Of a stretch of DNA of 62,901 nt, positions 11,681 through 36,632 are shown in pieces; position 1 is the first letter of the stretch; each line of letters opens with the position of its first letter. Both the position numbers and the translations under genes were made by a program. Under the pieces are notes generated by a model, which ran no database searches, had not been told where the DNA came from, and was given only the letters and a program-made list of their open reading frames with translations. Origin of the DNA: Candidatus Azambacteria bacterium (lineage in GTDB: Bacteria > Patescibacteriota > Minisyncoccia > GWC2-36-17 > WO2-46-25); NCBI GenBank assembly GCA_016234725.1, contig JACRAK010000005.1, forward strand, positions 1 through 62,901, written 5' to 3'.

Positions 11681-11790
11681 AAGCCAGTATCCTCAATTCT
11701 TTCTTTAATCCTCTCACGCCCTTTATTTAAAATAATAATGAAGGGCTGCGCTTCCGTTAAGATAAAAGAAAGAATTGAGGATACTGGCTT
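11681..11790. repeat. Conserved-core long hairpin element, copy A
   Basis: 23 bp perfect stem aagccagtatcctcaattctttc / gaaagaattgaggatactggctt. It encloses a 64 nt core with inner hairpin GCCCTT..AAGGGC and CCGTTAAGAT. Confidence 0.75.
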
Positions 11791-11829
11791 AGCAAAGAAC
11801 CTGGCTTATTATTTCGTAATTCAAGGATA

Positions 11830-22450: not shown

Positions 22451-22560
22451 CATGACATGAAACTTATAACTTGAAACTTGAATCTCGGAATTTTGGCTTC
22501 GCGCTCCACGTTTCATGTTTCAAGATTTAAGTTCCATGCTTCAAGACTTATACTTCATGA
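22451..22560. repeat. Heptanucleotide-periodic palindromic module, copy H2 (between two tRNAs)
   Basis: Left arm catgaaa cttataa cttgaaa cttgaat. Right arm ccacgtt tcatgtt tcaagat ttaagtt ccatgct tcaagac. Confidence 0.6.
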
Positions 22561-22750: not shown

Positions 22751-23056
22751 CTACTGCGCCTCAAGAAACTTTATGAACGGGTCTGGAAATTGTTTTTCGG
22801 CGATCGTTTTCCGAAACTCCTCCTGTGCGCGCGCTTTTTTAAGAAGGGCATTCAGATCGTTCTCTTTAATGGTCAGCGGCCTGCCTGTTATTTCCGCCTG
22901 CTGAAATACCACGCGATAACCGTATTGCCAGAAGACGAACCCCCATACGCCGATCGCCGCGATCAACCACGCGAACAAAATAACGTGAATGTGGCGCCTC
23001 AAAAACATCGCCGATCGCGACATCGCGCCCATGACCGTTTGAAGTTCTAATTTCAT
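22751..23056 (-). CDS. Small single-pass membrane protein, last gene of the pilM/N/O string
   Basis: 101 aa, TM helix VILFAWLIAAIGVWGFVFW. 5 nt gap to the PilO-like gene. Confidence 0.5.
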   Translation of the reverse strand: MKLELQTVMGAMSRSAMFLRRHIHVILFAWLIAAIGVWGFVFWQYGYRVVFQQAEITGRPLTIKENDLNALLKKARAQEEFRKTIAEKQFPDPFIKFLEAQ

Positions 23057-23061
23057 AATTG

Positions 23062-23640
23062 CTAATTAGTAGGTCTAGTATATACTTTTACGGTGAGCTG
23101 CGCCTTCACATCATTGGGCGAGGACGCAACCACTGCTTTCTTCTGCGTCATCGTGCCGCCTCCTTGCATGACCTGCGCCTTTTCCACCGCAGTAAAGTAG
23201 CGTGAATTTTCAAGAAGATATATGAAACGCAATACGCTGGGGAAACTTCCGGATATAGTAATATTGAAATGGAGCGAGGACGATCCTTGTGCGGTGCCGT
23301 CAACGGGCGCATCATCAGCCGCGCCGATCTCATGAAGCACCCCCGCTTCCAGGGCAAGCTGCTCGACAAGCATGATAAAGCGCAAACGTTCCTCGCGCGG
23401 AAGCAAACGCTCTTTAAGCGGCGAAAAAAGCTCGCGCGCGCCTTCGTATTCTTTCGCGATGGTGGCGATCTGCTCCTGCCGGATGGAAAGCAAGGCAAGC
23501 TCGTTTTGCGCATCGCGCAAAGTCGTACCCGCCTGCGTAATAAGCCCGAATAAAAACAAACTCCCCCATGCGCTTGCCGCTATAAGCACGCCGAGCACCC
23601 CTATCTGCACATACAATTTGTTCTTATACGAAAGAGTCAT
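23062..23640 (-). CDS. pilO: PilO-like type IV pilus assembly protein
   Basis: 192 aa, N-terminal TM helix then coiled coil. Position directly after pilN, with a 4 nt overlap. Confidence 0.55.
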   Translation of the reverse strand: MTLSYKNKLYVQIGVLGVLIAASAWGSLFLFGLITQAGTTLRDAQNELALLSIRQEQIATIAKEYEGARELFSPLKERLLPREERLRFIMLVEQLALEAGVLHEIGAADDAPVDGTAQGSSSLHFNITISGSFPSVLRFIYLLENSRYFTAVEKAQVMQGGGTMTQKKAVVASSPNDVKAQLTVKVYTRPTN

Positions 23641-24200
23641 TGCGATGTCTTTGTTTCATGCGTAAATGTGAACGTAAAAGTAAAATCAATGTTCTCTTCC
23701 TTAAGGATATTTTTGATCGGATTCTTTACACTTCCCTCCGCCACGAAATCGCTTTTCTGAAGCGCCTCGGCAAGCGCAAGCACCGCAGCGCGTGTTTTCG
23801 CGAACCCGGCGATGCTTACCGTTTTTGTGTTCGCATCCATCGAAATGCTTTTGAGATACGCATCCTGCCCCACCAAAGCTGCGATCCGCTCAAGCACGGG
23901 GGCAAGCGGAATGATCTCCGCATCCGCCGTAGCAAGAGCTCCTATGCTTGTATTAAGCTCGCGGACATTTTTTTCAATAGCAGAAAGGCGTTTTACCGTA
24001 TCAGTGGTGGTTTGCGTTTCGATCGACTGCCGAAGCGATTGTTCGTAGGTGAATACGAACGCATAGACCGACCCAAGCAGCACGTTAAAAAGGATCGCGA
24101 TGAGACACATGATGATGCTGATATGCGCCACAAGCCGCCGCTTTTGTTCAAGCGCATACTCATTTTTATATTGGTCGGGTAAGAGATTGAGTGTCAGCAT
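23637..24200 (-). CDS. pilN: PilN-like fimbrial assembly protein
   Basis: MLTLNLLPDQYK... (the INLLP-type N-terminus that binds PilM), single TM helix, 187 aa. Confidence 0.7.
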   Translation of the reverse strand: MLTLNLLPDQYKNEYALEQKRRLVAHISIIMCLIAILFNVLLGSVYAFVFTYEQSLRQSIETQTTTDTVKRLSAIEKNVRELNTSIGALATADAEIIPLAPVLERIAALVGQDAYLKSISMDANTKTVSIAGFAKTRAAVLALAEALQKSDFVAEGSVKNPIKNILKEENIDFTFTFTFTHETKTSQ

Positions 24201-24203
24201 AAG

Positions 24204-24320
24204 TCATGAATCATGAAACGTGAAACATGCGTCCTGAACCTTGAAACTTGAAACTTAAAGCTTTACGTTTTGAGTTATACGTTTTATATTCCATGTTTTA
24301 TGTTTTATGTTTCAAGTTTC
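24204..24320. repeat. Heptanucleotide-periodic palindromic module, copy H3 (pilM-pilN junction)
   Basis: 24226-24287 is 62/62 identical to 28175-28236. It contains a truncated leader-like ORF (complement 24211-24294, MEYKTYNSKRKALSFKFQGSGRMFHVS*). Confidence 0.75.
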
Positions 24321-25417
24321 TGCATGCCAGACAGCGCAAGCCCGAGCACGGTCGTATACCCAAGCGAGCGGCGATACGGCAACTCGGGAACTTCTTTGAG
24401 CGGTTCTTTCAAGATATTCGCCCATGGATTTCCGGTTTCAACGGGAATTTTCAACGCAAGCCCCAGATACACGTTCAGCCCGTTCAAATTCGACGCGCCG
24501 CCGCACAACAATATCTTTGCCACCGCCACCGCGCCTTCTTTGCGATGCTCATGCATGGCATGGCTTTCATAAAAAGAAATGTAGCTCCTGATCTGGTCGG
24601 CCAGGTCGCGCACGATCGGCTCAAGCGCCCCGTACACCTTTCCCTCGCGCTGATTTTTATCCAGTCCAATATCGAAAAATAATTTTCTTGCTTCTTCCTC
24701 GTTTACCGCAAACGAGGAAGAGACCGCGCCGATCATTTTATTCCCCGCCACCGGCACCGACGAAGTAAACTGCAGTGCGTCGCCTGAAAAAATGATAAAA
24801 CTCGTACGCGTCGCCCCGAGGTCCACAAGCAACACGGGCGCATCCGTGTGAAGTTCTTTTATCAGCGCACGGCTCACCGCCACCGACTCCACTTCAAGTG
24901 CCCGCGGAATAAAGCCGCATTTTTTAATAACAGACACATAGCCGTCAACGATCGTGCGCGGCGCGGCGGAAATGAGCACGTCCTGATGTCCCATGGCTTT
25001 CTGCTCTATGGGAACAAGCTGCCAATCGTAATACACATCATTAATGGCCATAGGAATATTCTGTTCGATCTCCCATTTGATCGCTTCTTTCGCTTCATGT
25101 ATGTTCATCTTCGGCAATTGGATCACGCGCGTGAACGAATGCTCTTCCGGCAAACTGCATACCACATGGCGCGTGGTGAGTTTTCCGTACTGCGGCTTTG
25201 CAAATGCGCTTTTTAATATCTTCATCACCTCTTCCTCCTGTTTGATCTCGCCGTTCACGATAAGCCCCTTTGGGAAATCACCCGCGCTAAACGCCGCAAG
25301 GGCAAGGCCGTGCCGCCCCTTTTTCAGCTGCACGAATTTGAATGTTTCGTCGGAGATATCGAGTCCGAACGCATCCGGCTCCCCCGCATGTAAATTTTGC
25401 AATAACGATCCGAGCAT
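24305..25417 (-). CDS. pilM: PilM, actin-like type IV pilus assembly ATPase-fold protein
   Basis: 370 aa. FGLDISDETFKFVQLKK.., VDLGATRTSFIIF, LLCGGASNLNGL. Confidence 0.85.
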   Translation of the reverse strand: MLGSLLQNLHAGEPDAFGLDISDETFKFVQLKKGRHGLALAAFSAGDFPKGLIVNGEIKQEEEVMKILKSAFAKPQYGKLTTRHVVCSLPEEHSFTRVIQLPKMNIHEAKEAIKWEIEQNIPMAINDVYYDWQLVPIEQKAMGHQDVLISAAPRTIVDGYVSVIKKCGFIPRALEVESVAVSRALIKELHTDAPVLLVDLGATRTSFIIFSGDALQFTSSVPVAGNKMIGAVSSSFAVNEEEARKLFFDIGLDKNQREGKVYGALEPIVRDLADQIRSYISFYESHAMHEHRKEGAVAVAKILLCGGASNLNGLNVYLGLALKIPVETGNPWANILKEPLKEVPELPYRRSLGYTTVLGLALSGMQKLET

Positions 25418-25428
25418 AATGGTTTAAC

Positions 25429-25548
25429 AGTCGAAAGTCGTAAAGTCTATAAAGTCCTTAAAGTCATAAGCAGGGGAAAGTTTTACTTCCGACTTTATGA
25501 ACTTATTGGTATTATTACATTTCTATAAGCTATAAGCTAGCGAAGCTA
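25429..25548. repeat. Low-complexity periodic repeat (AAAGTC word, 7-9 nt spacing) with inverted partner
   Basis: agtcgaaagtcgtaaagtctataaagtccttaaagtcataag ... gactttatgaactt, then ataagctataagctagcgaagctag. Same intergenic position as the GAAAC modules, between the adhesin gene and pilM. Confidence 0.5.
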
Positions 25549-25549
25549 G

Positions 25550-28243
25550 TTACGGCACTTCTTTCCAGTGCTCGATCTTCCATCCCGCAGAAGGGCCTGC
25601 GGAAAAATTAATGCCTTGGAGTCCCGACTCATACGTGATGGACGCGTTGTTTTCAAGCTCTACCGCATAGCCGGTGATCTGTTTTGCGCTTGCCGTCTGC
25701 TCCACTTCGATCTTCCCCGCCGACGCGTAAAATATCGCACCGTCGCTGTTGTTTTTCAATGCGATCGCATTGCCTGACCCACTGTATGTGGAAAGGAACA
25801 TGATGTAGCTGCCGTTGGATGGATTACACTGATTTGTTCCCGCATTATATCCCGCGGAACCGCATATCTTCACACCGTTTTGCACACTGATTGCTCCCTT
25901 CGTCGTCGGATTTGCAGGATCATCGGCGATCACCATGGTGCTCAACACGCCAAAGCCCGGGCTCAACACAACTTTGACGTTATTATCGACGGTAATATCG
26001 CCCACCACCCACACCGGCCCGTTAATGTAATAGGTCGCACCGTTGGTCGTTAAATTAAGATCGCCGGTAATTTTTACGGGGCCGAGCGTCGTGCCGTCCG
26101 GCGGGGAATACGGCCCCGCGATCGTGCCGCCCGCCGCGGCAGACGCCTCCCACGAATCAATATTTGCCTGCGAGATCGCCATAGGAACACTTGGCGGATC
26201 CGCATACGGCGTATATGCGGTGCCCGGCGTATACGGTGTCGGGCATGGCGACCCGGGACCATTTAAGAATGTCAGCGATGAACTATCAATGGTGGTGTAG
26301 TACGCATCGCCGCACACCTGCGCATTCATAATGGAATGCACATGTGCGTCTCCGGTCACAAGCACGCCGTCAATCTTTGTCGTAGCCCCTGCAAGATATA
26401 CTTTGAACGCCATGTCGGAATTTGAGCTTCCATTCACATTCGTCCATGTCGGGCTCCCTGCGCTCCAATCAGGGGAATACTTCGCTTGTCCGCTCCCATA
26501 CGGATCGGCCGTATCGTATCCCCACGCCCAATAATTAGAAAGATCGCTTCCGCCGTCAAGCACGATCCAGTATGTAGTCCCATTGGTAAGCGTCGGGTTT
26601 GAAGAAAAACCGACGTCGATCCACACATACCCCGTGCCGACGGATGCGGCGCCGAGCGTGCCGGTCGCCACCACGCTTCCGGTGCCGCCGGGTACGCCGC
26701 TGTTGTTATTTACGATGCGTATCGTCGCATCGGGCGGAGCACCCGTCTTTTTTACATACACACTTACTTTAGAAAGAGCGGAGCTCGTGCTTGGCTGAAA
26801 GCTTTGTGCCGCATCCGATTGTACCGCATACGGGGAACACGCATCATCAGTGCATTTGATGAACTTCAGATCTTTGTTCGTGTTGTCGTAATAACTGATG
26901 CGGGCGAAACCGTCGGCGCCGAGCGCGAGCGACGTGTATTGCCCGACATCAGCGGCATTTTCTGCGGTCACAATATTTTTTGTTGAACAATCGGCGTTCG
27001 TGCATTGCACAAGCTTTAATTCGGTATTTGAAACGCCGTAATAACTGATGCGCGGGAATGTGTCGGCGCCCAGCTTGATCGAGGCGTACTTCCCCACGTC
27101 GCCCGATGTATCAACGCTCGTGATGTTTTTTGCCGAGCAGTCCGCGTTCGTGCAGCGGGCGAATTTGAGATCGTTATTCGTAGTATTGTAATAGCTGATG
27201 CGCGCGAAGCCGTCTGCCCCCATCGCAAGCGACGAATATTGCCCGATGTCATTTGACGTTTCGACGCTCGTGATATTCTTTGTTGAACAGTCGGCGTTCG
27301 TGCATTGAACGAACTTCAGATCTTTGTTCGTGTTGTCGTAATAGCTGATGCGCGCGAAGCCGTCTGCCCCCATCGCAAGCGACGAATATTGCCCGACGTC
27401 ATTTGACGTTTCGACGCTCGTGATGTTTTTTGCCGAACAATCGGCGTTCGTACAGCGGACAAACTTCAGATCTTTGTTCGTGTTGTCGTAATAGCTGATG
27501 CGCGCGAAGCCGTCTGCGCCGAGCGCGAGCGAATCGTACATGCCGACATCGCCGGCCGTATCAACGCTCGTGATGATGCTCCCCACGGTCGTGCCGGCGA
27601 AAAAGTCGGCGTTGTGCGTTGTTGATGATTGATTCAACACCGCGGCCCCCGCACCGGCAACCCACGCATCCCCGACGATCTTCGTGCCGGTGCAATTGCT
27701 TGAGCAGGTGATATTCCCATCGGAATAAATACTGCCGTTCACGGTCGAGTTTTGCTTCAAATTAAGCCCTCCCGCGCCGATCTGCACGCCGTAATAAAAA
27801 TCGGCAACATCGGTTGATAACGTGAGATCTGTTTGTACTTTACGCACTGCGTTTGATAACGCGCCCTCCGTTGTGATCGTTTTCGTCTGGCCGACGGTCG
27901 CTATCGTCGTGGTCGCTACCGCAGAACCCACCGGTATCACTGTTTGCATCCCGATATTTTTTCCGTTCTTAATGCGATAAATAGCATCTTCGATACCTGC
28001 TTCCGATGCGTAATATCCTTGCTCGGAGTTGATCTCGTTGGTAAGCGACCGTGTACTTGAGATCGTGGCGTATAAAAATCCGCCGCCGAATATCAAGCTC
28101 AACGCAAGCACCGCGATCACCCCGACGATGGTGGCGAATCCTTTCTCCTGAAACGTGAAACGTGAAACGTGAAGCATGCGTCCTGAACCTTGAAACTTGA
28201 AACTTAAAGCTTTACGTTTTGAGTTATACGTTTTATGTTTCAT
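25550..28243 (-). CDS. Large PilX-like minor pilin / putative tip adhesin with five 50 aa repeats
   Basis: Prepilin-like N-terminus ...FTFQEKG/FATIVGVIAVLAL (no Glu5, as in PilX/GspK). The alternative start ATG at 28177 gives MLHVSRFTFQEKGF. Central 5 x 50 aa repeats. 897 aa from the first ATG. Confidence 0.7.
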   Translation of the reverse strand: MKHKTYNSKRKALSFKFQGSGRMLHVSRFTFQEKGFATIVGVIAVLALSLIFGGGFLYATISSTRSLTNEINSEQGYYASEAGIEDAIYRIKNGKNIGMQTVIPVGSAVATTTIATVGQTKTITTEGALSNAVRKVQTDLTLSTDVADFYYGVQIGAGGLNLKQNSTVNGSIYSDGNITCSSNCTGTKIVGDAWVAGAGAAVLNQSSTTHNADFFAGTTVGSIITSVDTAGDVGMYDSLALGADGFARISYYDNTNKDLKFVRCTNADCSAKNITSVETSNDVGQYSSLAMGADGFARISYYDNTNKDLKFVQCTNADCSTKNITSVETSNDIGQYSSLAMGADGFARISYYNTTNNDLKFARCTNADCSAKNITSVDTSGDVGKYASIKLGADTFPRISYYGVSNTELKLVQCTNADCSTKNIVTAENAADVGQYTSLALGADGFARISYYDNTNKDLKFIKCTDDACSPYAVQSDAAQSFQPSTSSALSKVSVYVKKTGAPPDATIRIVNNNSGVPGGTGSVVATGTLGAASVGTGYVWIDVGFSSNPTLTNGTTYWIVLDGGSDLSNYWAWGYDTADPYGSGQAKYSPDWSAGSPTWTNVNGSSNSDMAFKVYLAGATTKIDGVLVTGDAHVHSIMNAQVCGDAYYTTIDSSSLTFLNGPGSPCPTPYTPGTAYTPYADPPSVPMAISQANIDSWEASAAAGGTIAGPYSPPDGTTLGPVKITGDLNLTTNGATYYINGPVWVVGDITVDNNVKVVLSPGFGVLSTMVIADDPANPTTKGAISVQNGVKICGSAGYNAGTNQCNPSNGSYIMFLSTYSGSGNAIALKNNSDGAIFYASAGKIEVEQTASAKQITGYAVELENNASITYESGLQGINFSAGPSAGWKIEHWKEVP
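26861..27610. repeat. Five tandem 150 bp coding repeats inside the adhesin gene
   Basis: Unit starts at 26861, 27011, 27161, 27311 and 27461. The two units from 27311 are near-identical. Encoded unit: DVGxYxSLAxGADGFARISYYDNTNKDLKFxxCTNADCSxKNITSVxTSx. Confidence 0.85.
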
Positions 28244-28255
28244 GTTTTATGAATT
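28146..28255. repeat. Heptanucleotide-periodic palindromic module, copy H5
   Basis: 15 consecutive heptads: gaaacgt x3, gaagcat, gcgtcct, gaacctt, gaaactt x2, aaagctt, tacgttt, tgagtta, tacgttt, tatgttt, catgttt, tatgaat. Centre AAGCTT. Encodes the adhesin's N-terminal leader. Confidence 0.8.
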
Positions 28256-28805
28256 AGTACGCTCCGCGAAGCGTTGCGGAAGAATTCACCGCAATGCGCG
28301 CCTGGTCTTTTAGATTCGTGCTTTGCGTGTTGATGCGCGCTTGAATACTCACCGTGACAGAATCTTTTCCTGTCGCAGAAGAAAATTTGGTAAATCGCAG
28401 TTGCTCGACAAATACCCGCTCGGACGTAAGCGGATTTGTGCTTTGCCCGTCCCTTTTTTCATACACCCTTCCGTTGTCCACATAAAAATCAACGTATGCA
28501 CCATTCTCTCCTGAAGGCGCATTCAGTGCGGTTTCCACAGAAAGCTGGCCCGCATCGGCATCAAGTACGCTTGTCGGCATATATACGCTTTTTGCATATC
28601 TGATTTCATCAATGATCGTCCGTAATGCGCCATTTGTATTTTGAAAGACATTTTGCTGCGCAACGGATTTATCATATGCTTTCAAATTATCCATGAGCGA
28701 CGACGTGATAACCGCCATCACGACACCGGCGATACCGACATAGATAAGCATTTCAATGATGGTAAAACCCTTTTCACGAAACGTGAAACGTGAAACGTGA
28801 AACAT
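28254..28805 (-). CDS. Minor pilin (PilW-like) with prepilin-type N-terminal cleavage/methylation motif
   Basis: MFHVSRFTFREKG/FTIIEMLIYVGIAG (G-1, F+1, E+5). Start trimmed to the ATG at 28805. Confidence 0.7.
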   Translation of the reverse strand: MFHVSRFTFREKGFTIIEMLIYVGIAGVVMAVITSSLMDNLKAYDKSVAQQNVFQNTNGALRTIIDEIRYAKSVYMPTSVLDADAGQLSVETALNAPSGENGAYVDFYVDNGRVYEKRDGQSTNPLTSERVFVEQLRFTKFSSATGKDSVTVSIQARINTQSTNLKDQARIAVNSSATLRGAY

Positions 28806-28962
28806 GGATCTTGAATCTTGAATCCTGAAACGTGGAGCACGAAGCAACAAGCTTCGATTGAGGCATTGCGCGTCTGCTTTTCTGTTTTCTGTTTCACGTT
28901 CCATGTTTCAAGATTTTGGTTTCATGCTTCAAGTTTCATGTTCTATGGTTTCAGTTCTTCAG
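28776..28962. repeat. Heptanucleotide-periodic palindromic module, copy H6
   Basis: gaaacgt x3-4 ... cttgaat cttgaat cctgaaa on the left. gtttcac gttccat gtttcaa ... gtttcat on the right. About 50 nt non-repeat centre. Confidence 0.7.
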
Positions 28963-29433
28963 TATATCCGTAATATACGTCACCAGCTGTATACTTTTTG
29001 CGGGAGACCCCCAGCTGACCGTCGTTGTCACTTTTTTTGTCTTAGGGTCGTCGGTGCCACCGGATGTAGCGATGTTGTCATTAATATCGCGCGATACATT
29101 GGCAAGCACGATCGTTCGCGTAAACTTGCTTCCGAGCATTCCCGGATTCGTGCCCGTAAGAGCCCACTGGCTTCCTGATGTCGTGAGATAATATGTCGCG
29201 CCGAACGTAAGCCCCGAGATGTTAGCGGTCCACCCGCCGTCGCGCATATTGCGTACCGCCTCGATTCCTTCCTGTGCATACGCGAGCGCCCTTGCTTTAT
29301 CATTCCTCCCTTGCATCACTTTCAGCGTAAATGCGCTTACCTGTACTACGGAAAAAAACGCCGCCGAAATAATAGAGACCGCGATAACGATCTCAAGCAT
29401 CCCCACGCCTTTTTCAAAATGTGTTGATTTCAT
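28951..29433 (-). CDS. Minor pilin (PilV-like) with prepilin-type N-terminal motif
   Basis: MKSTHFEKG/VGMLEIVIAVSIISAAFF (E+5). The ATG at 29433 overlaps the upstream stop (ATGA). Confidence 0.7.
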   Translation of the reverse strand: MKSTHFEKGVGMLEIVIAVSIISAAFFSVVQVSAFTLKVMQGRNDKARALAYAQEGIEAVRNMRDGGWTANISGLTFGATYYLTTSGSQWALTGTNPGMLGSKFTRTIVLANVSRDINDNIATSGGTDDPKTKKVTTTVSWGSPAKSIQLVTYITDILKN

Positions 29434-30341
29434 TGTGCTGCCGGTGCCGAAGCCCACAACGATGTCCCTTGTGTCACCGCGCCGTCGGCGGCGTAGTTCA
29501 CAAGGCTTTGCCCATCGAGCGATATCTCAAGCGCAGCATTATTATACCGCATATCGCGGGTGACAGAAAAATCCGCCGACGACCCGGTCGCGGCATGCGT
29601 GTGGATGCGAAGCACCTGATTTGAGCCGTTCACGATGACGGTGCCGGACCAATCGAATGCACTGCCGTCCCAATAACTTTGAAAATCGATGTTCTGCGTC
29701 AAGAACCCGGGGAAATTCAACATGAGCGTAACGCCCGACTGTATGCCTTGCGCATAGGTGAAATGCACATGCCGCGTATCTGAAACCCGCGTGCCACCAG
29801 GAGGAAGCGCATCGGCGGAAATATCGGCCCGCCCCGACACCGCGACTTCTATTGTTTTCAATTTTGAGGGGTCGGCGATGAGGCGCACAGTGAGCGTGCC
29901 ATTCTGCGCCGTTTTCCCCGTGATGCGGTCAAACACCACATCGCTCCCGCCTCCCATAAGCGCGATATTTGCGATCTCCGCGCGCGAAGGAAGCGCGTAA
30001 ATGATGTTATCGGGGTCAGACGCATTATATGTCGCGCCCCGAAACAGCACGTACTGCGTTTGCTCAAAATGCACGCCGTACTGCGAGCTGGCAAGCGAAG
30101 CGATGGTCCTCGTACGCGCAAATTGAAGCGCATCCACAACCTTGAATGCCGATGTTTTGAGATCGGCGCTTTCGGTCGCCGTGCTAAACCCGATAAAAAG
30201 AGTGGCGCCGATGATCGCCAGCACCCCTATGGCAATAACGATCTCGATGAGCGTGAACCCGCTCTCCTGAAACCTGAAACTTGAATCCTGAAACTTGAAT
30301 CCTGAAACTTTGAGTTTTGAGTTATACGTTTTATGTTCCAT
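29430..30341 (-). CDS. Minor pilin (FimT/GspH-like) with a 28 aa leader
   Basis: MEHKTYNSKLKVSGFKFQDSSFRFQESG/FTLIEIVIAIGVLAII. There is no in-frame alternative start between the ATG at 30341 and the G/F cleavage motif. Confidence 0.7.
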   Translation of the reverse strand: MEHKTYNSKLKVSGFKFQDSSFRFQESGFTLIEIVIAIGVLAIIGATLFIGFSTATESADLKTSAFKVVDALQFARTRTIASLASSQYGVHFEQTQYVLFRGATYNASDPDNIIYALPSRAEIANIALMGGGSDVVFDRITGKTAQNGTLTVRLIADPSKLKTIEVAVSGRADISADALPPGGTRVSDTRHVHFTYAQGIQSGVTLMLNFPGFLTQNIDFQSYWDGSAFDWSGTVIVNGSNQVLRIHTHAATGSSADFSVTRDMRYNNAALEISLDGQSLVNYAADGAVTQGTSLWASAPAAQ

Positions 30342-30362
30342 GTTTTAAGTTTCAAGTTGTAT
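30262..30362. repeat. Heptanucleotide-periodic palindromic module, copy H7 (pilC-fimT junction)
   Basis: cctgaaa cctgaaa cttgaat cctgaaa cttgaat cctgaaa ctttgag ttttgag ttatacg ttttatg ttccatg ttttaag tttcaag. Confidence 0.75.
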
Positions 30363-30365
30363 GGG

Positions 30366-31595
30366 TTATATGTTATTCATCACCGAGTACATCGGCGTGA
30401 TCATGGAGAGCGCAAAAAACCCGACGCCGGTACCGATCACCACCATCATGATCGGCTCGATGATAGTGGAAAGATTTTTCGTAAGCTCGTTCACCTCGTC
30501 CTCGTAAAATTCCGCGAGCTTGGTAAGCACTTTGGTCAAGCTTCCGGTTTCCTCGCCGACCGCGATCATTTGGACCACCAGCGGCGGATACAGCCCTTTG
30601 TATTTTTTGAGCGATTCAAACAGCGTCTTCCCTTTCTGGATCTCAAGCGCCGCAGTTGAAAGTGACTCGGAAAAATAATGATTGGAAAGTGTCTTTGATA
30701 AAATTTCAAGCGCTTTGACGATAGGAACGCCCGAATCCACAAGAATGCCGAGCGTACGGCACAGCCGCGCAGAGTTCAGCTTGCGCGAGAGCCCCTTGAT
30801 AACAGGCATGCGCAAAATAAGGGCATCAAGCCCTTTCTTGCCGCCCGCGGTGCGAAGTACCAGCCGCATCACATAGATCAAGCCGATCACGCCGCCGATC
30901 GCAAAATACCAATAATTAAGCATGATATTGCTTAAAAAGATAAGTACCTTCGTAGAAGCGGGAAGCTCTGCGCCGATATCAAGAAAAGTGGCGGCGAGTT
31001 TTGGGACCACCAGCACCATCATGAGGTACCCTACGATAAGCATGACCACGAAAATAACGGCGGGATACATAAGCGCGCCGCGTACGCGCGACACGATATC
31101 GTGATCCTTTTTCATCTGGTCAGCAAGTCCATTGAGCACCTCTTCGAGATTCCCCGCAGTTTCGCCGATCCGTACCATATTCACGTACAGATCGGAAAAC
31201 GCATCGGGATGCGCGCCGATGCATTCCGAAAACGCCTTGCCCGCCTGCACGTTGTTTGCCACCTCCGCGATGATCGCTTTCAGTTTTTGATTTTCTGCCT
31301 GCTCTTCAAGCACCGACAGCGCTTTATTGAGCACAAGCCCTGCGCCGATCATCACCGCGAGATTGCGCGTGAACATGATCTTGTCAACAAGAGACACCCC
31401 GCGAAACGGCTTTGCGCCGCGCAATATCTTCCCGAGCGCTCCGGTGGTGGTCACCGTTCCTTCTTCGTTCGCCGATGTCATCACCGCTCCCTGCGCGCGT
31501 AAAATATGCGCGAGATCTTCCAGATCTTTCGCCTCTTGCGTCCCAGAACGTATTTCACCGTCTACCGCTCGCGCGGTATAAAGAAATTTTGGCAT
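30366..31595 (-). CDS. pilC: PilC (type IV pilus platform protein, T2SS F family)
   Basis: 409 aa, two T2SSF repeats, three TM segments. Immediately downstream of pilB. Confidence 0.85.
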   Translation of the reverse strand: MPKFLYTARAVDGEIRSGTQEAKDLEDLAHILRAQGAVMTSANEEGTVTTTGALGKILRGAKPFRGVSLVDKIMFTRNLAVMIGAGLVLNKALSVLEEQAENQKLKAIIAEVANNVQAGKAFSECIGAHPDAFSDLYVNMVRIGETAGNLEEVLNGLADQMKKDHDIVSRVRGALMYPAVIFVVMLIVGYLMMVLVVPKLAATFLDIGAELPASTKVLIFLSNIMLNYWYFAIGGVIGLIYVMRLVLRTAGGKKGLDALILRMPVIKGLSRKLNSARLCRTLGILVDSGVPIVKALEILSKTLSNHYFSESLSTAALEIQKGKTLFESLKKYKGLYPPLVVQMIAVGEETGSLTKVLTKLAEFYEDEVNELTKNLSTIIEPIMMVVIGTGVGFFALSMITPMYSVMNNI

Positions 31596-31656
31596 ATATT
31601 TATTATACTACTTTGCATTACAAAGCGTCAGATGCGAGGCGCGCCGAGCCGCGACT

Positions 31657-31766
31657 CGCTTCCCCCGTTCAATTCTTTCTTTTATCTTAACGGAAGTGCA
31701 GCTCTTCAATAATCCCTATATACAAGAGCGTGAACGGATTAAAGAAAGAATTGAACGAGGGAAGCG
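31657..31766. repeat. Conserved-core long hairpin element, copy B (core inverted relative to A and C)
   Basis: Stem cgcttcccccgttcaattctttc / gaaagaattgaacgagggaagcg (1 mismatch). The core reads atcttaacggaagtgcagctcttc...gagcgtgaacggattaaa. Inner hairpin GCTCTT/AAGAGC covaries with GCCCTT/AAGGGC of the other copies. Confidence 0.75.
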
Positions 31767-31805
31767 GAACAAAGCAGATGGCGGTTTGTAATGCGAAGTA
31801 CACAA

Positions 31806-33605
31806 TTATTCTTTTGCCACACGGAGTATCTCCTCGATCGATGTAAACCCCTGCGCCGCTTTGATGAAGCCGTCTTCCAACATGGTCACCATGCCTTCTT
31901 CTCGCGCCGCGCGCTCGATCTCCGGAAATGGCTCTTTTTTCAAAATAAGATCCCGTATATGCTCAGATACCTCGAGCACCTCGTACACCCCCGCCCGTCC
32001 TTTATACCCCGACGGGGACTCTTTGGACGGCTTTGCTTTGAAAAAATCGATCGTCTCCCATGTCGCATCGGGCGCCACTATCTTCTCGCGTTTCATTATC
32101 TTTAAAATATCATCGAGCTTGAATATTTCACCGAGATTTTTGATCTGGTCCTTGGTCAGATGATATTTTTCTTTTTCCGGGCATAATCTCCGCACGAGCC
32201 GCTGGGCAAGGATCGCGTTCACGGTTGAGGCGATAAGAAACGGCTCTATCCCCATATCGATAAGGCGCGGCAACGCACCCGCCGCAGAGTTGGTGTGCAG
32301 GGTGCTCAACACAAGGTGGCCGGTGAGCGCCGCGTTCACCGCAAGCGTCGCGGTCTCCGAGTCGCGTATCTCGCCCACCATAATGATATTGGGGTCTTGG
32401 CGCAACAGCGACCGAAGCCCCGCCGCAAACGTTAGCCCGATCTGCGGCTTTACCTGCGTTTGGTTCACACGCGGCATCCGATATTCGATCGGGTCTTCAA
32501 TGGTGGAAATATTCACTTCTGCGGTATTGAGGATCTCAAGCGCGGTATAGAGCGTGGTTGTTTTTCCTGAGCCCGTGGGACCGGTAACCAGAAACATGCC
32601 GCTTGGCCGCTGGATCGCGCGCATCACGCGTTCAAGCGACCCGCTGTGGATGCCCAGCCCTTCAAGATTCGTCGTGTGCCCTTCTTCCCGTAAAAGACGC
32701 ATGACGATCTTCTCCCCGTCATACACGGGAATGATGGAAACGCGGAACGATATTTTGAATTCGCTCGTCTCGAGCTTGAAACGCCCGTCCTGCGGGAGTC
32801 GGTGCTCATCAAGCCGTAAATTTGAAAGCACCTTGATGCGCGCGGCAATACCCTGCTGCAATTTTTTCGGCAATGTCATCGCATCGTGCAAAATGCCGTC
32901 GATGCGGTAGCGCACGATCACTTCTTTTTCTGCCGGCTCGATATGGATATCGGACGCGCTTTGCGTGATGGCATGCCGCAACAGCGAATCAACGATCTTG
33001 ATGACCGGAAGGTCTTCGGCCGCCTTCGCAAGCTCCTCCACTTTCACGCCCCCTGCCTCTTCGTCTTTGGGCGCGCTGACAAATTTCCCCTCAAGCGACG
33101 CGAGCTCGCCCGCCTCTTTTTCCTCAACCTCGATACCGCGCGGCGCCAACAGATCGCTGAATTCCTCCTCCAAACTTTTTTGATACTGCTTCAACACCGC
33201 CGCGATGCCTTTGGAATTCGTAAGGCGAGGCAGAATGATAAGATTCGCTTTTTTGCGCACGAACTCGATCGTTTGAATATCTTCCGGGTCGGTCATTGCC
33301 ACCTCAAGATTAGACCCTGCTTTGCGGAATGCCACGATGCTGTATTTGCGCGCAATGGGCTCGGGCACGATCTGCAGAACCTCGAGCGGAATGATCTCCT
33401 TTTCGAGGTTCACAAAAGGAATACCGAGAATATATGCTTTCAGCTTGATAAGCTCTTCTTCGGTGATTATTTTCTGCTCGATGAGCACCGTCTCGAGTTT
33501 TTTACCCGTTTGCGTCGCTTCTTTTTGCGCCCCGTCAAGCTGGTCTTTTTTTGCCAGCCCCCCGTCAAGCAAGAACGCCATCAATTGTTCCGGTTCGACT
33601 CTCAT
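31806..33605 (-). CDS. pilB: PilB/GspE-family type IV pilus assembly ATPase
   Basis: N-terminal T2SSE_N-like domain, Walker A GPTGSGKTTTLY, Asp/His boxes. 599 aa. Confidence 0.9.
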   Translation of the reverse strand: MRVEPEQLMAFLLDGGLAKKDQLDGAQKEATQTGKKLETVLIEQKIITEEELIKLKAYILGIPFVNLEKEIIPLEVLQIVPEPIARKYSIVAFRKAGSNLEVAMTDPEDIQTIEFVRKKANLIILPRLTNSKGIAAVLKQYQKSLEEEFSDLLAPRGIEVEEKEAGELASLEGKFVSAPKDEEAGGVKVEELAKAAEDLPVIKIVDSLLRHAITQSASDIHIEPAEKEVIVRYRIDGILHDAMTLPKKLQQGIAARIKVLSNLRLDEHRLPQDGRFKLETSEFKISFRVSIIPVYDGEKIVMRLLREEGHTTNLEGLGIHSGSLERVMRAIQRPSGMFLVTGPTGSGKTTTLYTALEILNTAEVNISTIEDPIEYRMPRVNQTQVKPQIGLTFAAGLRSLLRQDPNIIMVGEIRDSETATLAVNAALTGHLVLSTLHTNSAAGALPRLIDMGIEPFLIASTVNAILAQRLVRRLCPEKEKYHLTKDQIKNLGEIFKLDDILKIMKREKIVAPDATWETIDFFKAKPSKESPSGYKGRAGVYEVLEVSEHIRDLILKKEPFPEIERAAREEGMVTMLEDGFIKAAQGFTSIEEILRVAKE

Positions 33606-33617
33606 TGCATTGCGTTA

Positions 33618-33986
33618 TTATTTGCCAAGAATTTCCTTGATCTTGAGAACGATGTCAGGAAGATCATAATTCGCCTTTACCAGGTATGTTGTCGCGCCAA
33701 GCGCCACTACTCTTCCTACGTCCTCGGCCGATTCGAGATTGGTAAGCACGATCACGGGAGTATGCGCGGTCGCTTCGTCTTTTTTTATCTCGCCGAGCAC
33801 GGTGAACCCGTCCATTTTCGGCAAGATAAGATCAAGCAGAACAAGGTCGGGCTTTTCTGCGCGTACCGCCGCGAGCCCCGTTTCGCCGTCAGACGCGGTA
33901 ATGACGGAATACCCCGCTTCTTTCAACGCCGCGCCCAACATTTTTTGCAGGGTCGTCTCGTCTTCGATGAATACTATTTTTTCCAT
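33618..33986 (-). CDS. Single-domain response regulator (CheY-like receiver)
   Basis: MEKIVFIEDE..DLVLLDLILPKMDG..PVIVLTN. 122 aa, no output domain. Confidence 0.85.
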   Translation of the reverse strand: MEKIVFIEDETTLQKMLGAALKEAGYSVITASDGETGLAAVRAEKPDLVLLDLILPKMDGFTVLGEIKKDEATAHTPVIVLTNLESAEDVGRVVALGATTYLVKANYDLPDIVLKIKEILGK

Positions 33987-33993
33987 AGAATTC

Positions 33994-34062
33994 TCAAAAC
34001 TTGTATCTTGGATCTTGAAACTGTGTTTCAGGATTCATGTTTTAAGTTTCATGTTTTATATT
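33994..34062. repeat. Heptanucleotide-periodic palindromic module, copy H8 (HK-RR junction)
   Basis: cttgtat cttggat cttgaaa ctgt gtttcag gattcat gttttaa gtttcat gttttat. Overlaps the last codons of the kinase gene (..YKYKT*). Confidence 0.65.
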
Positions 34063-35041
34063 TGTATACCGGCAACGAAAACCAAAACCGCGAACCGACG
34101 CCTTCCTGCGATTCAAACCCGATCGCACCACCCGACGCCTCAATGATGAATTTGACCAGATACAACCCGACGCCAAGCCCTTTTGTTTGATACGAAAATT
34201 CGTTCGACGCACGGAAAAACTTCTGAAAGATATTTTTGTGCTCATGAGCAGGAATGCCGACGCCCTTATCTTTGATCTCAAACATCACGCGGTCATTTTC
34301 TTGCCGCAAGGTGATCACAATGGACGAATGCTCTCTGCTGTATTTTATCGCATTGTCCACTAAGTTTTCTATCACCAGCCGCGTGCGGAACGGATCGGCG
34401 AGTACAGGCGCGATCACCTCTTCGCCCCAGAGTTCAATGGTGCTGTGCTTTGCTTCCAGGTCGTGCGCGCGCAAGGCGATGATCTTTTTTACGCTCTCGC
34501 GCATATCGAACCGCCCGAAATTCATGGTCACCCGACCCGCCTCGATGCGCGCGATATCAAGCAGCGTATTCACGATGTTCACCATTTTATTGGTGCTTTC
34601 TTTGATGATCATATACGCTTCTTGCTGTTTTGCGCTCTCGGGCGACGTACCGTCGCTTTCGATCGTGCTTGCCGACCACTTCAGCGCGGTAAGCGGTGTG
34701 AGCAATTGATGCGAGATGATGTCTAAAAATTGCGATTTGAGCCGACTTACCTCGACGATCTTTGCAAAACTCTGGATGATGATATGCCCGATGATAAGCA
34801 CGATGCCCGCCGTGCCAAGCGCCAAAAGCGCGCTTATCTGCGGGTCCTGATCGAACCGACTTGCGATAAAATACGCCGTCAGCGTAGACACCGTCACCGC
34901 CACGCCCATAAGCACGAAAAGAAATGTCGGGCATTTCCACACCGACACGTTGAAATCTTCCCTGCACCCCCGCACGATATTGAACTGACGTAAGAATTTT
35001 AACAGCATGGATGCGCATAGTATACCACATTTTCCATGCAA
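34049..35041 (-). CDS. Sensor histidine kinase (HisKA + HATPase_c)
   Basis: H-box FLDIISHQLLTPLTAL, N/G boxes LVDNAIKY, DKGVGIP, GLGVGL. Two N-terminal TM helices. The start codon is uncertain (several in-frame Met). Confidence 0.8.
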   Translation of the reverse strand: MHGKCGILCASMLLKFLRQFNIVRGCREDFNVSVWKCPTFLFVLMGVAVTVSTLTAYFIASRFDQDPQISALLALGTAGIVLIIGHIIIQSFAKIVEVSRLKSQFLDIISHQLLTPLTALKWSASTIESDGTSPESAKQQEAYMIIKESTNKMVNIVNTLLDIARIEAGRVTMNFGRFDMRESVKKIIALRAHDLEAKHSTIELWGEEVIAPVLADPFRTRLVIENLVDNAIKYSREHSSIVITLRQENDRVMFEIKDKGVGIPAHEHKNIFQKFFRASNEFSYQTKGLGVGLYLVKFIIEASGGAIGFESQEGVGSRFWFSLPVYKYKT

Positions 35042-35102: not shown

Positions 35103-35173
35103 CGGGGTGTCGTATACCGGCAGTACGCCTGTTTTGGGAACAGGTAGACTGGGTTCAATTCCCAGCACCCCGA
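35103..35173 (+). tRNA. tRNA-Pro (anticodon TGG)
   Basis: Acceptor CGGGGTG/CACCCCG, anticodon loop TTTGGGA, T-arm CTGGGTTCAATTCCCAG, discriminator A. Confidence 0.85.
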
Positions 35174-35304
35174 CTGAGTGAAGTAAAGAGAGGTGCGGCG
35201 CGCAAACTGCTTTGCGCGCGATGGGAATTGAAGGGTTATGCTCTGTGCGCAAGCACGGCATAACCCCGGCCCGCAGGGAATTCCCAGCACCCCGACTGAG
35301 TGAA
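35174..35304 (+). repeat. tRNA-linked structured element, copy 4 (short variant, cognate to tRNA-Pro)
   Basis: GGGAATTGAAGGGT at 35223, where AATTGAA is the reverse complement of this tRNA's T-loop TTCAATT. Hairpins GCGCGCAAA-CTGC-TTTGCGCGC and TTATGC..GCATAA. 26 nt perfect direct repeat aattcccagcaccccgactgagtgaa at 35157-35182 and 35279-35304. Confidence 0.7.
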
Positions 35305-35308
35305 ATAA

Positions 35309-35341
35309 AAGAAGCCCGCATGTTTCCGGGCTTCTTTTTTG
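35309..35341. terminator. Bidirectional Rho-independent terminator
   Basis: AAGAAGCCCG-catgtttc-CGGGCTTCTT followed by TTTTTT. Confidence 0.7.
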
Positions 35342-36520: not shown

Positions 36521-36632
36521 GAAGCGGTCATCCGCAACTCTTTCTTCCATCCGCTCGCGCCCTTTTATAGTTATAATAATGAAGGGCTGCGCTTCCGTTA
36601 AGATTGCAGAAAGAGTTGCGGATGACCGCTTC
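36521..36632. repeat. Conserved-core long hairpin element, copy C (between atpD and atpC)
   Basis: 24 bp perfect stem gaagcggtcatccgcaactctttc / gaaagagttgcggatgaccgcttc. Core in the same orientation as copy A. Confidence 0.75.

Follow-up and report, generated by a model that had tools for sequence, protein, structure and literature searches.

In the type IV pilus operon of an Azambacteria-like Patescibacterium, palindromic modules built from 7-nt words supply, as read from the DNA, the start codon and the whole predicted cleavable class-III leader of minor pilins. Start-adjacent heptamer repeats are of a known kind; palindromic pairs of them that write pilin leaders are new here. The explanation to which we give somewhat better than even credence is that the modules are heptamer palindromes like the STRR and LSSR repeats (below), which have spread by gene conversion and been co-opted as dispensable pilin leaders. 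They look more like tolerated, recombining repeat DNA than like a proven RNA switch, because they are gained or lost between near-identical strains by recombination.

Heptamer modules in the pilus operon and tRNA spacers

The window, by which we mean the whole stretch of DNA analysed, is 62,901 nt long (Candidatus Azambacteria bacterium, GCA_016234725.1, JACRAK010000005.1), and the census on this genome covers these 62.9 kb only. Its pilus genes and heptamer modules are as follows:

23062-35041, minus strand: type IV pilus operon (HK, RR, PilB, PilC, four pilins, PilM, PilN, PilO-like; Pfam)
25550-28243, minus strand: 897-aa pilin-like protein with G/FATIVGV, no Glu+5 and 50-aa tandem repeats
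28254-28904, minus strand: 216-aa minor pilin with N_methyl motif; leader MFHVSRFTFREKG/FTIIE from module 28776-28962
28951-29457, minus strand: PilV-like pilin with ordinary short leader MKSTHFEKG/VGMLE; overlaps the upstream gene; no module
29430-30341, minus strand: GspH/FimT-type minor pilin; its sole in-frame start before G/FTLIE is the ATG at 30339-30341, within a module
199-258: module at tRNA-Lys/tRNA-Ser; the tRNA-sense strand is the better folder (z -3.4)
3282-3354: AGAAWCT heptamer palindrome downstream of tRNA-Glu; both strands form a strong hairpin (z about -7)
22451-22560: module at tRNA-Arg/tRNA-His; the tRNA-sense strand is the better folder (z -4.6)
24204-24320: module at PilM/PilN; near-copy of the focal module with a 62/62 core; gives the pilM stop
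25429-25548: composite variant at the 897-aa pilin/PilM junction
28146-28255: focal module, at the junction of the 216-aa and 897-aa pilin genes
28776-28962: largest module (187 nt), at the PilV-like/pilin junction; includes the TGA stop of the upstream gene
30262-30362: module at the PilC/pilin junction; encodes MEHKTYNSKLKVSGFKFQDSSFRFQESG
33994-34062: module at HK/RR; last kinase codons and TGA stop; no frame open across the module

Every module located in the preliminary description is present, and inverted 7-nt arrays make up seven modules in the window, with two variants besides; the palindrome of AGAAWCT words lies beyond the original list. The 62/62 identity that had been claimed for 24226-24287 and 28175-28236 is exact. 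Pfam assignments agree with the junctions that had been named (HK/RR, PilC/GspH-type pilin, PilV-like/pilin, pilin/897-aa pilin and PilM/PilN), the two tRNA locations (tRNA-Lys/Ser and tRNA-Arg/His) are right, and the leaders that had been quoted, the truncated PilM/PilN frame (MEYKTYNSKRKALSFKFQGSGRMFHVS followed by a stop) and the terminal ..QKLET and ..YKYKT tails all translate as described. Two particulars need amendment: the palindrome centre is AAGCTT in 28146-28255, 24204-24320 and 28776-28962 and CTTAAG in 199-258, as had been said of all modules, but the remaining modules differ; and the "AAAGTC variant" at 25429-25548 is indeed there, but its words are a composite of TAGCTTA and GACTTTA. 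The module at 24204-24320 contains a 27-codon ORF that ends 14 nt upstream of the pilN ATG.

TRF finds period-7 arrays at each module site (at least three head-to-tail 7-nt units, far above chance), only the module sites stand out when the entire window is scanned for period-7 autocorrelation, and the period-7 detector returns zero arrays from shuffled sequence. The TGAAACNTGAAACNTGAA pattern, with at most one mismatch allowed, occurs 19 times where 0.01 occurrences are expected. The modules are AT-rich and 60-190 bp long, all lie at gene or tRNA junctions, and they reach into coding sequence at both ends. That they are dispersed and pilus-associated, as first proposed, is supported by their presence at 6 of 11 pilus-operon junctions and at 0 of ~45 other protein-gene junctions in the window (p=1.4e-5).

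In an Rfam scan the nine tRNAs of the window are the only matches that attain the gathering score, and the modules match no covariance model. A Pfam scan of the ~50 ORFs in these 62.9 kb of the genome finds no transposase, RAYT, integrase or Y1 transposase; a PilD homologue is also absent from the window and is found in the related operon L143. Exact-protein look-ups with PilB and the response regulator retrieved a single short Logan contig, whose sequence is that of the window, and no population variants. The window also carries a second repeat family, distinct from the heptamer modules, that is clearly MITE-like and active; Logan contig L001 ends within the ~112-nt inverted-repeat element, which likewise belongs to a family other than the heptamer modules.

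Predicted translation of the modules into pilin leaders

In order of transcription, a pilus-operon module consists of a 5' arm (NTGAAAC/ATAAAAC), a short centre and a 3' arm (GTTTCAN), after which comes the E-K/S-G/F site. The focal copy is laid out as follows:

28254-28256, minus strand: TAA that terminates the upstream pilin, on the module edge
28241-28243, minus strand: first in-frame ATG (MKHKTYN..., 35-aa leader)
28212-28253, minus strand: inverted units; sense 5' arm ATGAAAC/ATAAAAC/GTATAAC... with stop codons in three frames
28207-28212: palindrome centre AAGCTT
28149-28211: nine plus-strand TGAAACG-type heptamers; in the minus-strand sense, the 3' arm of GTTTCAN units
28175-28177, minus strand: second in-frame ATG, 13 codons before Phe+1 (MLHVSRFTFQEKG)
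28136-28141, minus strand: codons for Gly(-1) and Phe(+1) in the 897-aa pilin, between which prepilin cleavage is predicted

Translated in three frames, the 5' arm has stops in every frame plus an ATG, and the 3' arm stays open; the focal 3' arm is open in all three frames of the sense strand and reads ..SFKFQGSGRMLHVSRFTFQ. At 5/5 pilus junctions the upstream stop (that of HK, PilM, PilV-like, the 216-aa pilin or PilC) falls within or at the edge of the 5' arm. TGAAACN arrays also occur in at least eight other phyla and in viral contigs; the order TGAAAC-then-GTTTCA is found in 16/16 pilin modules versus 13/38 in other phyla (p=3e-6). The length of the 3' arm is constant at 13 codons in many diverged genomes, and 11/16 related modules have a start-type codon at the position of the focal second ATG. 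Because ATG, TTG or GTG at -13 makes a 13-aa leader possible, the 5' arm need not be translated there.

The proposal that a module forms the 5' end of the pilin gene that follows it is borne out: pilin 29430-30341 has the module ATG as its only possible start, and its orthologues in L129 and L132 are likewise without any start besides the module ATG. In 15/16 modules it is the pilin frame that stays open longest, although the difference is modest (median 32.5 codons, versus 25 in one other frame). The sites that follow, G/FTLIE in 29430-30341 and G/FTIIE in 28254-28904, are class III signals with Gly at -1, hydrophobic residues from +1 and Glu at +5, and both proteins match N_methyl in Pfam. 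Some tip or minor pilins lack Glu+5, as does the G/FATIV of the 897-aa protein. Across 179 kb of Patescibacteria DNA an array is present at 18/28 pilin N-termini, and in loci that were not chosen for arrays 7/14 arrays lie in the 1.8% of the DNA directly upstream of pilins (p=2e-9). Among metagenome matches 16/18 precede G/FTL(I/V)E pilins, a proportion to which the design of the search pattern itself contributes.

In 93 orthologues the leader is anywhere from 3 to 55 aa long, and in many of them it looks like a translated repeat. It is established for type IV pilins that prepilin peptidase removes the leader, and since the leader is cut off its sequence would be nearly unconstrained, so that a module could replace what is probably the ancestral compact arrangement (stop and start overlapping, leader of 8-10 aa) with the mature protein untouched. 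The preliminary description had held the 7-nt periodicity to be a property of the DNA and not of the protein, and this is upheld by R<->C and T<->M peptide changes that track concerted C<->T changes at heptamer position 7 (HVSRFTF to HVSCFMF, for example). Peptide-level selection for a conserved long leader was considered and rejected, as the codons used keep strictly to the heptamers and radical residue changes follow from nucleotides that changed in concert. A protein search with a 40-aa module-encoded leader yielded no candidates.

Turnover of the modules and competing explanations

Comparison of the pilus locus with relatives shows the same junctions carrying other heptamer words, or none. 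Relatives of the host have TAACTNA-type arrays at the HK/RR junction, some orthologous sites have single arms seemingly grown from local sequence (the stop-codon region AAATAAC, for example), and unit number and word vary between species. The suggestion that modules take part in recombination among pilin genes gains support from the 62/62 copies and from a filled/empty allele with a flanking substitution cluster. In this one pair, metagenome contigs L133 (filled) and L141 (empty) are 99.4-99.5% identical and differ by one whole 105-nt module, and the same mature pilin has a 34-aa leader in the former and a 10-aa leader in the latter (MIGNKNHEKG, whose ATG overlaps the upstream stop). Seven substitutions are clustered at the indel edges with >80 nt identical on each side, and this cluster marks a recombination tract, which resembles paralogous pilin 5' ends; the junction words CAT/AAAA and CAC/GAAA are only heptamer-like 5/7 direct repeats. 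As judged by comparison of sequences, exchange of pilin 5' ends is shown by one filled/empty allele pair together with the near-identical copies.

In the explanation that we favor, the modules would be a lineage-specific family in Azambacteria-like Patescibacteria, made of inverted pairs of STRR/LSSR-type arrays and sited between cistrons of the type IV pilus operon and in a few tRNA spacers. Transcription would pass through the upstream gene's stop, the 5' arm with its ATG, the centre and the open 3' arm to the E-K/S-G/F codons of the next pilin. The arrays would be DNA-level entities whose units change in concert, originally perhaps the product of replication slippage, and their copies would be homogenised and moved between pilin 5' ends by recombination or gene conversion, with the conserved G-F-T-L-I-E codons as the homology arm on one side and heptamer-like microhomology on the other. 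N-terminal pilin homology does not explain the copies at PilM/PilN, HK/RR and the tRNA spacers, and concentration in one operon together with the constant 13-codon 3' arm spacing hints at a constraint beyond a purely neutral model.

The preliminary description had suggested an intra-operon mRNA hairpin, but does the transcribed strand fold as such? The focal sense strand has a folding energy of -17.6 kcal/mol (z -0.98), no better than shuffles, and the 16 pilin modules share essentially no sense consensus (-0.4 kcal/mol, 6 pairs), which argues against that suggestion. The opposite strand of the focal module reaches -34.6 kcal/mol (z -5.75). The antisense consensus of the 16 pilin modules is a 22-pair hairpin of -15.4 kcal/mol whose G-U pairs fall at just those positions that are A-C on the sense strand, antisense is more stable in 15/16 (mean difference -8.8 kcal/mol, p=0.001), and covariation among them is negligible. 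A promoter/terminator scan of 22-35.3 kb found no excess in modules and no antisense promoter signal that stands out; the HK/RR module alone looks terminator-like there, on the antisense strand. Replication- or transcription-linked mutation bias was rejected as the source of the strand asymmetry, as the G-rich sense strand of the operon, presumably the leading strand, carries G>A and T>C. The asymmetry suggests that, where modules are translated, these sense-strand transitions give rise to the ATG and to basic residues and make the mRNA hairpin less stable. Minor-pilin expression may be affected as well, for example by a long structured initiation region that replaces direct translational coupling.

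A regulatory mRNA hairpin could sequester the next pilin's AUG, set segmental stability or couple translation to the upstream cistron; in the coupling variant a ribosome terminating on that cistron melts the 5' arm. This would suit the placement of all five upstream stops and the good sense folding of 30262-30362 (z -3.8), of 28776-28962 (z -4.8) and of the modules in L133, L135, L136, L138 and L143 (z -3.6 to -6.2), and translational regulation has been proposed for start-adjacent heptamer arrays in Beggiatoaceae and Nostoc (PMC4679880; bioRxiv 10.1101/2022.06.06.494920). Yet the sense strands of the focal module (z -1.0) and its copy (z -2.0) fold like shuffles, sense z is above -1.4 in 6/16 pilin modules, consensus, covariation and promoter/terminator-like excess all fail to appear, and near-identical strains hold the same mature pilin with and without a module. 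The mRNA-hairpin idea is thus weak, and we consider it unlikely, though we give it more weight than the other alternatives. Quite unlikely, too, is that palindromic or tandem heptamer arrays at start codons (TGAAACN, TAACTGA) are widespread as a cis-acting device for initiating translation, recognised by a conserved protein that binds single-stranded nucleic acid (such as a cold-shock-domain protein or S1). In Patescibacteria this device would have been recruited to the pilus operon, where it would set or switch how much of each minor pilin is made, and the leader peptide would be a by-product. The greater antisense stability and the antisense consensus hairpin might instead mean that the opposite strand is functional, as an antisense RNA hairpin or as a non-coding-strand ssDNA hairpin recognised by a protein (a recombinase or a cold-shock-type heptanucleotide binder, for example); however, the needs of sense coding (GTG>ATG, GAA>AAA, TGT>CGT) yield the same asymmetry, neither covariation nor an antisense promoter backs it, and in the tRNA spacers it is the transcribed strand that folds better, which leaves neither DNA strand consistently preferred. 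We regard this as very unlikely.

Could the modules be mobile elements? A non-autonomous element of the MITE, Correia or RPE type, with its transposase encoded elsewhere, might insert in frame into the tolerant leader region, and discrete module lengths, near-identical copies 3.9 kb apart, copies at unrelated sites (tRNA spacers, HK/RR, PilM/PilN), a strain-level presence/absence allele with heptamer-like direct repeats at its junctions, another, clearly MITE-like family active in the window, and the precedent of RPEs as palindromic repeats read in frame (PMC10969869) all speak for this. We nevertheless judge it decidedly improbable: no terminal inverted repeats are defined beyond the arms, which are themselves inverted arrays, the one filled/empty site shows no clean target-site duplication, orthologous sites carry other words or single locally grown arms, the substitutions flanking the indel fit recombination and not cut-and-paste, and neither a transposase nor a RAYT turned up among the ~50 ORFs of the window. 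Least credible to us is a contingency locus, in which individual minor pilins are turned on or off by frameshifts, as 7-nt units are gained or lost between the start and the Gly-Phe site. In its favor, 7 nt is no multiple of three, the arrays separate the ATG from the mature part of surface-filament genes, and heptanucleotides are the commonest long simple-sequence repeats and slippage-prone, according to the summaries of Mrazek 2007 in PMC4679880 and PMC11868660. But imperfect units like these suppress slippage, an in-frame ATG is available in GTTTCAT-type arrays at any copy number, the 13-codon 3' arm is unchanged across many diverged genomes, and 7-nt indels are absent from the near-identical pairs compared (L001/window, L002/3/4, L005/6/7, L129/130, L131/137, L135/142 and L133/134). 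This lack of copy-number polymorphism lowers the phase-variation reading.

Significance and relation to known repeat systems

If our favored explanation is right, minor-pilin leaders and start codons in these ultra-small episymbiotic bacteria are written by fast-turning-over repeat DNA and not by conserved coding sequence; as a result orthologous pilins would differ as widely in leader length as they do, and gene callers truncate or mis-start pilin genes (e.g. P0005, P0009, P0065). Assemblies may break at such repeats. The mature pilin that occurs with leaders of 10 aa and of 34 aa is a natural experiment on leader length or 5' structure versus expression and processing. The modules extend the poorly understood start-codon heptamer repeats to the candidate phyla radiation, and recombination is an added mechanism for the spread of such repeats.

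In Neisseria, conserved 5' segments of pilE/pilS serve gene conversion, and CTCTT repeats in the signal-peptide coding region of opa genes cause on/off switching. The modules resemble pilE/pilS in that conserved pilin 5' sequence is homology for recombination between pilin copies, but here the exchanged segment would be the leader module itself, silent cassettes and mature-domain variation not being demonstrated. Opa phase variation is listed in PMC11868660; like the CTCTT repeats, the modules have a unit that is not a multiple of three in the cleaved-signal-peptide coding part of a surface-protein gene, but they are palindromic, their units are imperfect and no copy-number polymorphism was detected.

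RPEs are also palindromic repeats read in frame in host proteins where extra residues are tolerated (PMC10969869). They are, however, about 150 bp long, non-periodic and inside the mature proteins of many unrelated genes, whereas the modules are heptamer-built, N-terminal in a cleaved-off peptide and largely restricted to pilin genes. Correia/NEMIS and REP/BIME elements, for which effects on mRNA processing and stability have been proposed (PMC10969869, PMC3733652), share with the modules a dispersed, intergenic, palindromic nature within operons and insertion polymorphism; unlike them, the modules have no GTAG/CGTC head or defined terminal repeats and are not GC-rich, their hairpin is often weak on the sense strand, and the window yielded neither a RAYT nor a transposase. 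Membership of the REP/BIME-REPIN class (20-40-bp GC-rich palindromes with a GTAG/CGTC head and a RAYT) was rejected, as the modules are AT-rich, 60-190 bp long and headless.

Heptanucleotide repeats are known as the cyanobacterial STRR and among long simple sequence repeats (Mrazek 2007, as cited in PMC4679880 and PMC11868660), as TAACTGA repeats in Beggiatoaceae, Cyanobacteria and Bacteroidetes (MacGregor 2015, PMC4679880) and as heptamer repeats in Nostoc (bioRxiv 10.1101/2022.06.06.494920). Like these, the modules are tandem 7-nt repeats of lineage-variable word and unsettled function that are intergenic and typically stand beside start codons. Unlike these, they pair their arrays in inverted orientation, so that a palindrome results, they reach into coding sequence and supply stops, the ATG and a whole signal leader, and they are concentrated in one operon of a reduced Patescibacteria genome.

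Heptamer palindromes in the pilus operon

The preliminary description placed dispersed palindromes of 7-nt units at 199-258, 22451-22560, 24204-24320, 28146-28255, 28776-28962, 30262-30362 and 33994-34062, with a variant at 25429-25548, and Tandem Repeats Finder reports period-7 arrays at every one of these sites. Period-7 autocorrelation over the whole window picks out these module sites only, and the same detector finds zero arrays in shuffled sequence. The word TGAAACNTGAAACNTGAA, allowing at most one mismatch, occurs 19 times in the window against 0.01 expected. Read on the plus strand, the focal module (28146-28255, between the genes for the 216-aa and 897-aa pilins) is composed of nine TGAAACG-type heptamers, an AAGCTT centre (28207-28212) and six inverted units. 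The modules are a real, well-delimited family, and their coordinates, identities and translations were all verified: 24226-24287 and 28175-28236 match at 62 of 62 positions, and translation reproduces the quoted leader peptides, the truncated ORF at the PilM-PilN junction and the C-terminal residues that modules give to PilM and to the kinase. The surrounding genes are as follows (domain assignments by Pfam).

Features of the pilus operon, and one additional palindrome
35041 down to 23062, minus strand: all pilus operon genes
Pilus operon, minus strand: histidine kinase and single-domain response regulator (Pfam)
Pilus operon, minus strand: PilB and PilC (Pfam)
29430-30341, minus strand: GspH/FimT-type pilin (Pfam)
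Pilus operon, minus strand: second pilin, with N_methyl motif (Pfam)
Pilus operon, minus strand: PilM, PilN and a PilO-like protein (Pfam)
Minus strand: PilV-like pilin and 897-aa pilin-like protein (class-III signal motif; no significant Pfam match)
3282-3354: additional AGAAWCT heptamer palindrome

Modules occupy 6 of the 11 pilus-operon junctions and 0 of the ~45 other protein-gene junctions in the window (p = 1.4e-5). Homologues of the GspH-type pilin carry the source labels Patescibacteria or Candidatus Azambacteria, and tRNA is the sole family matched in an Rfam scan of the window. Three-frame translation of every module reveals one common layout in the direction of transcription: the 5' arm, built of units such as NTGAAAC and ATAAAAC, has stop codons in each of the three frames and contains an ATG, and none of the three frames is closed in the 3' arm, which is built of GTTTCAN units. 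Five genes (kinase, PilM, PilV-like, 216-aa pilin and PilC) end in stop codons that lie within or border the 5' arm, and the 3' arm continues directly into the E-(K or S)-G/F codons of the following pilin (the slash marks the predicted prepilin cleavage site). Three of the four pilin genes in the window start with a module; the remaining one overlaps the gene before it and has the ordinary leader MKSTHFEKG. The start of the pilin at 29430-30341 must come from the module, because ATG, GTG and TTG are all absent in frame between the module ATG (30339-30341) and G/FTLIE. The focal module offers two possible starts, 28241-28243 (35-aa leader) and 28175-28177 (13-aa leader).

Other repeats are also present in the window. 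A second family of ~112 nt (11680-11791, 31657-31766, 36521-36632 and 61368-61481) has 30-32-nt inverted arms of 93-97% complementarity around a 50-nt core, and two of its four copies lie immediately upstream of PilC-family (T2SSF) genes (30366-31595 and 10608-11636). The PilB-PilC spacer that holds one copy is 210 nt long versus 14-15 nt in relatives, so that copy is an insertion (MITE-like). A 100-nt repeat of 85-87% identity (1253-1352, 3136-3235, 57402-57501), which includes the 34-nt palindrome TTTCAAAAATATGAACTGCTTCATGTTTTTGAAA, lies 28-52 nt 3' of tRNA-Arg, tRNA-Glu and tRNA-Gly. The 3'-terminal 18 nt of tRNA-Pro and the 13 nt that follow (35157-35187) recur 122 nt further on (35279-35309, 97% identity), which looks like an attachment-site duplication from a small integrated element. 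G+C content is 0.42-0.43 at 50001-52000 and 60001-62000 versus ~0.52 elsewhere, and the ORFs within these two segments have no Pfam matches.

DNA repeat, leader peptide and RNA structure

Is it the encoded peptide or the DNA repeat that is being kept? The aligned 3' arms contain heptamer-consistent codons only, and HVSRFTF becomes HVSCFMF through an identical C-to-T change in every unit. We ascribe this to repeats evolving in concert at the DNA level, not to selection on the leader peptide. The order TGAAAC then GTTTCA, the only one that puts the open arm beside the codons of the mature pilin, is common to all 16 pilin modules; other phyla more often have the reverse order, 25 versus 13 among the matches listed (p = 3e-6). 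The longest open frame is the pilin frame in 15 of the 16 modules, by a modest margin.

Folding calculations lend little to the earlier proposal of an mRNA hairpin, which fails for the focal copy: its transcribed strand folds at -17.6 kcal/mol with a z of -0.98, and that of the PilM-PilN copy has a z of -1.96. The opposite strands of these two modules fold at -34.6 and -36.3 kcal/mol, respectively (z ~ -5.7). The antisense strand is the more stable in 15 of 16 pilin modules (mean difference -8.8 kcal/mol). The consensus structure of the 16 reaches -15.4 kcal/mol and 22 pairs for the antisense strand, versus -0.4 kcal/mol for the sense strand, and shows no covariation. The asymmetry arises because A-C mismatches on the sense strand face G-U on the antisense strand, and the changes that cause it (GTG>ATG, GAA>AAA, TGT>CGT and ATG>ACG) are those that make the start codon and basic residues. 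On the strength of these changes we read the asymmetry as probably left behind by coding and by selection that keeps the start accessible, rather than as a sign of antisense RNA. In the two tRNA spacers, which are untranslated, the transcribed strand folds better.

Related operons and recombination

A comparison of related pilus loci, which the preliminary description had called for, was made by retrieving orthologous loci and comparing their junctions one by one; these junctions hold other words or none. At the PilC-pilin junction most relatives have heptamer arrays with different words (GTTTCAC, GCTTCAC, GATTCAN, TAAGCTA/AGCTTAT, CAAAANN), and locus L008 has no heptamer array. In loci L002 and L008 the PilV-pilin junction is compact, with a single base between stop and ATG and a leader of 8 aa; in L005 and L132 it is occupied by a TAAGCTA-type palindrome, and in the window by the 187-nt TGAAAC-type module. 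Between the kinase and response regulator genes, L002 (6427-6483) and L005 (~6496-6540) have single TAACTNA-type arrays that begin at the kinase stop codon and appear to grow from the stop-codon region. Leader length ranges from 3 to 55 residues over 93 orthologues, and many leaders are translated repeats (for example KSYKLKASEG and HVSRFTFHEKG). Arrays are confined to the pilus operon in the 20-kb loci of five relatives. Of the 28 pilin N-termini encoded in 179 kb of Patescibacteria sequence, 18 have an array; where loci had not been chosen for arrays, 7 of the 14 arrays present are in the 1.8% of the DNA immediately upstream of pilins (p = 2e-9).

Metagenomes were searched for a GTTTCAY array joined to E-K-G-F codons, giving 18 matches on 11 contigs. 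Sixteen of the 18 precede G/FTL(I/V)E pilins, an association that the search pattern partly forces; it does not force the presence of a complementary 5' arm or of an open leader of 30-34 aa (MKH(K/E)T...KRK...FHVSRFTFHEKG). These contigs often carry two or three successive pilin genes with one module each. The operon on contig L143, which includes a prepilin peptidase gene, has modules on all four of its minor pilins and a short leader on its major pilin.

Several observations on the pilus genes themselves accompany this comparison. Public gene calls for the orthologous pilins P0005, P0009, P0065 and L002 10001 begin at an internal Met past the cleavage site (MIEIIVAIG...); the true start inside the repeat array is missed, and repeat-encoded leaders produce systematic mis-annotation. 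Within the 897-aa pilin gene a unit of 150 nt (50 aa) is repeated 4.8 times in tandem (26861-27575), and the orthologue of this gene is 717 versus 667 aa long, a difference of exactly one unit, in the 99.9%-identical assemblies L002 and L004; the repeat number of this adhesin-like pilin therefore varies within a population. A 101-aa ORF with no Pfam match (22751-23056) is conserved in every related operon, immediately past the PilO-like gene (as at L002 17033-17338 and L129 17363-17668), and may be an unrecognised pilus-assembly component.

Most near-identical contig pairs have no 7-nt length differences. Contigs L133 and L141, 99.4-99.5% identical over ~4 kb, differ by one whole 105-nt module: the product of the filled allele (L133) is MKHETLKLKYAKQYKSKLRFSVFHVPRFTFHEKG/FTLIELMVAVGVF and that of the empty allele (L141), whose ATG overlaps the upstream stop, is MIGNKNHEKG/FTLIELMVAVGVF. 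The indel is bounded by AAATCAT and GAAAA(G/A)GG, six substitutions lie within the 22 nt past it and one just before, more than 80 nt are identical on each side of this cluster, and the flank of the filled allele is similar to paralogous pilin 5' ends. Judged from sequence, this difference is the likely signature of a recombination or gene-conversion tract carrying the module plus conserved N-terminal pilin codons, and the pair indicates that the mature protein can do without the module-encoded leader. The 62/62 match between two window modules fits recombination or gene conversion as well, and with this tract it upholds the earlier idea of recombination. No transposase was identified among about 50 window ORFs scanned with Pfam. 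Most likely, then, the modules are recombining heptamer-repeat palindromes that are tolerated and co-opted at pilin 5' ends because the leader is cleaved off.

Distribution beyond pilins and known repeat systems

Scanning one genome per species with TGAAACNTGAAACNTGAA gave at least 120 loci (L009-L128), the matches listed being from Bacteroidota (many Flavobacterium), Acidobacteriota, Chloroflexota, Desulfobacterota, Verrucomicrobiota, Planctomycetota, Patescibacteria and others. At 31 of the 120 matches listed, two arrays in inverted orientation lie within 120 nt; 29 of these 31 are intergenic, ~20 have a start codon at a distance of ~20 nt or less, and none lies ahead of a pilin gene. The heptamer palindrome itself is therefore not pilus-specific; among the matches listed, service as a pilin leader is confined to these Patescibacteria. 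Viral contigs with at least 3.3 units number 83 (TGAAACN arrays on viral contigs are loci L144-L223).

In the literature searched, neither the TGAAACN word family, nor heptamer palindromes from Patescibacteria, nor prepilin leaders encoded by repeats are described. Among known elements, Rickettsia RPEs are palindromic repeats read in frame, and Correia and ERIC elements are intergenic palindromes processed by RNases (PMC10969869); the modules fall outside REP/REPIN as these are defined. With MITEs they share presence/absence polymorphism and near-identical dispersed copies, and the junction words at the one filled/empty site are heptamer-like direct repeats matching at 5 of 7 positions. Among the long simple-sequence repeats of prokaryotes, those with a 7-nt unit are the commonest (PMC4679880, PMC11868660), and the modules agree with the definition of a heptamer simple-sequence array in all but strain-level 7-nt variation, which was not seen in the near-identical contig pairs compared. 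Geobacter has dispersed heptanucleotide elements of four units (PMC2700814), and in Nostoc the expression of recF and recO is affected by heptamer repeats near start codons (bioRxiv 10.1101/2022.06.06.494920). Beggiatoaceae, Cyanobacteria and Bacteroidetes have TAACTGA repeats just 5' of start codons, with a role in translation that has been proposed and is unproven (PMC4679880), and theirs is the same word as the TAACTNA found between the kinase and response regulator genes of L002 and L005.
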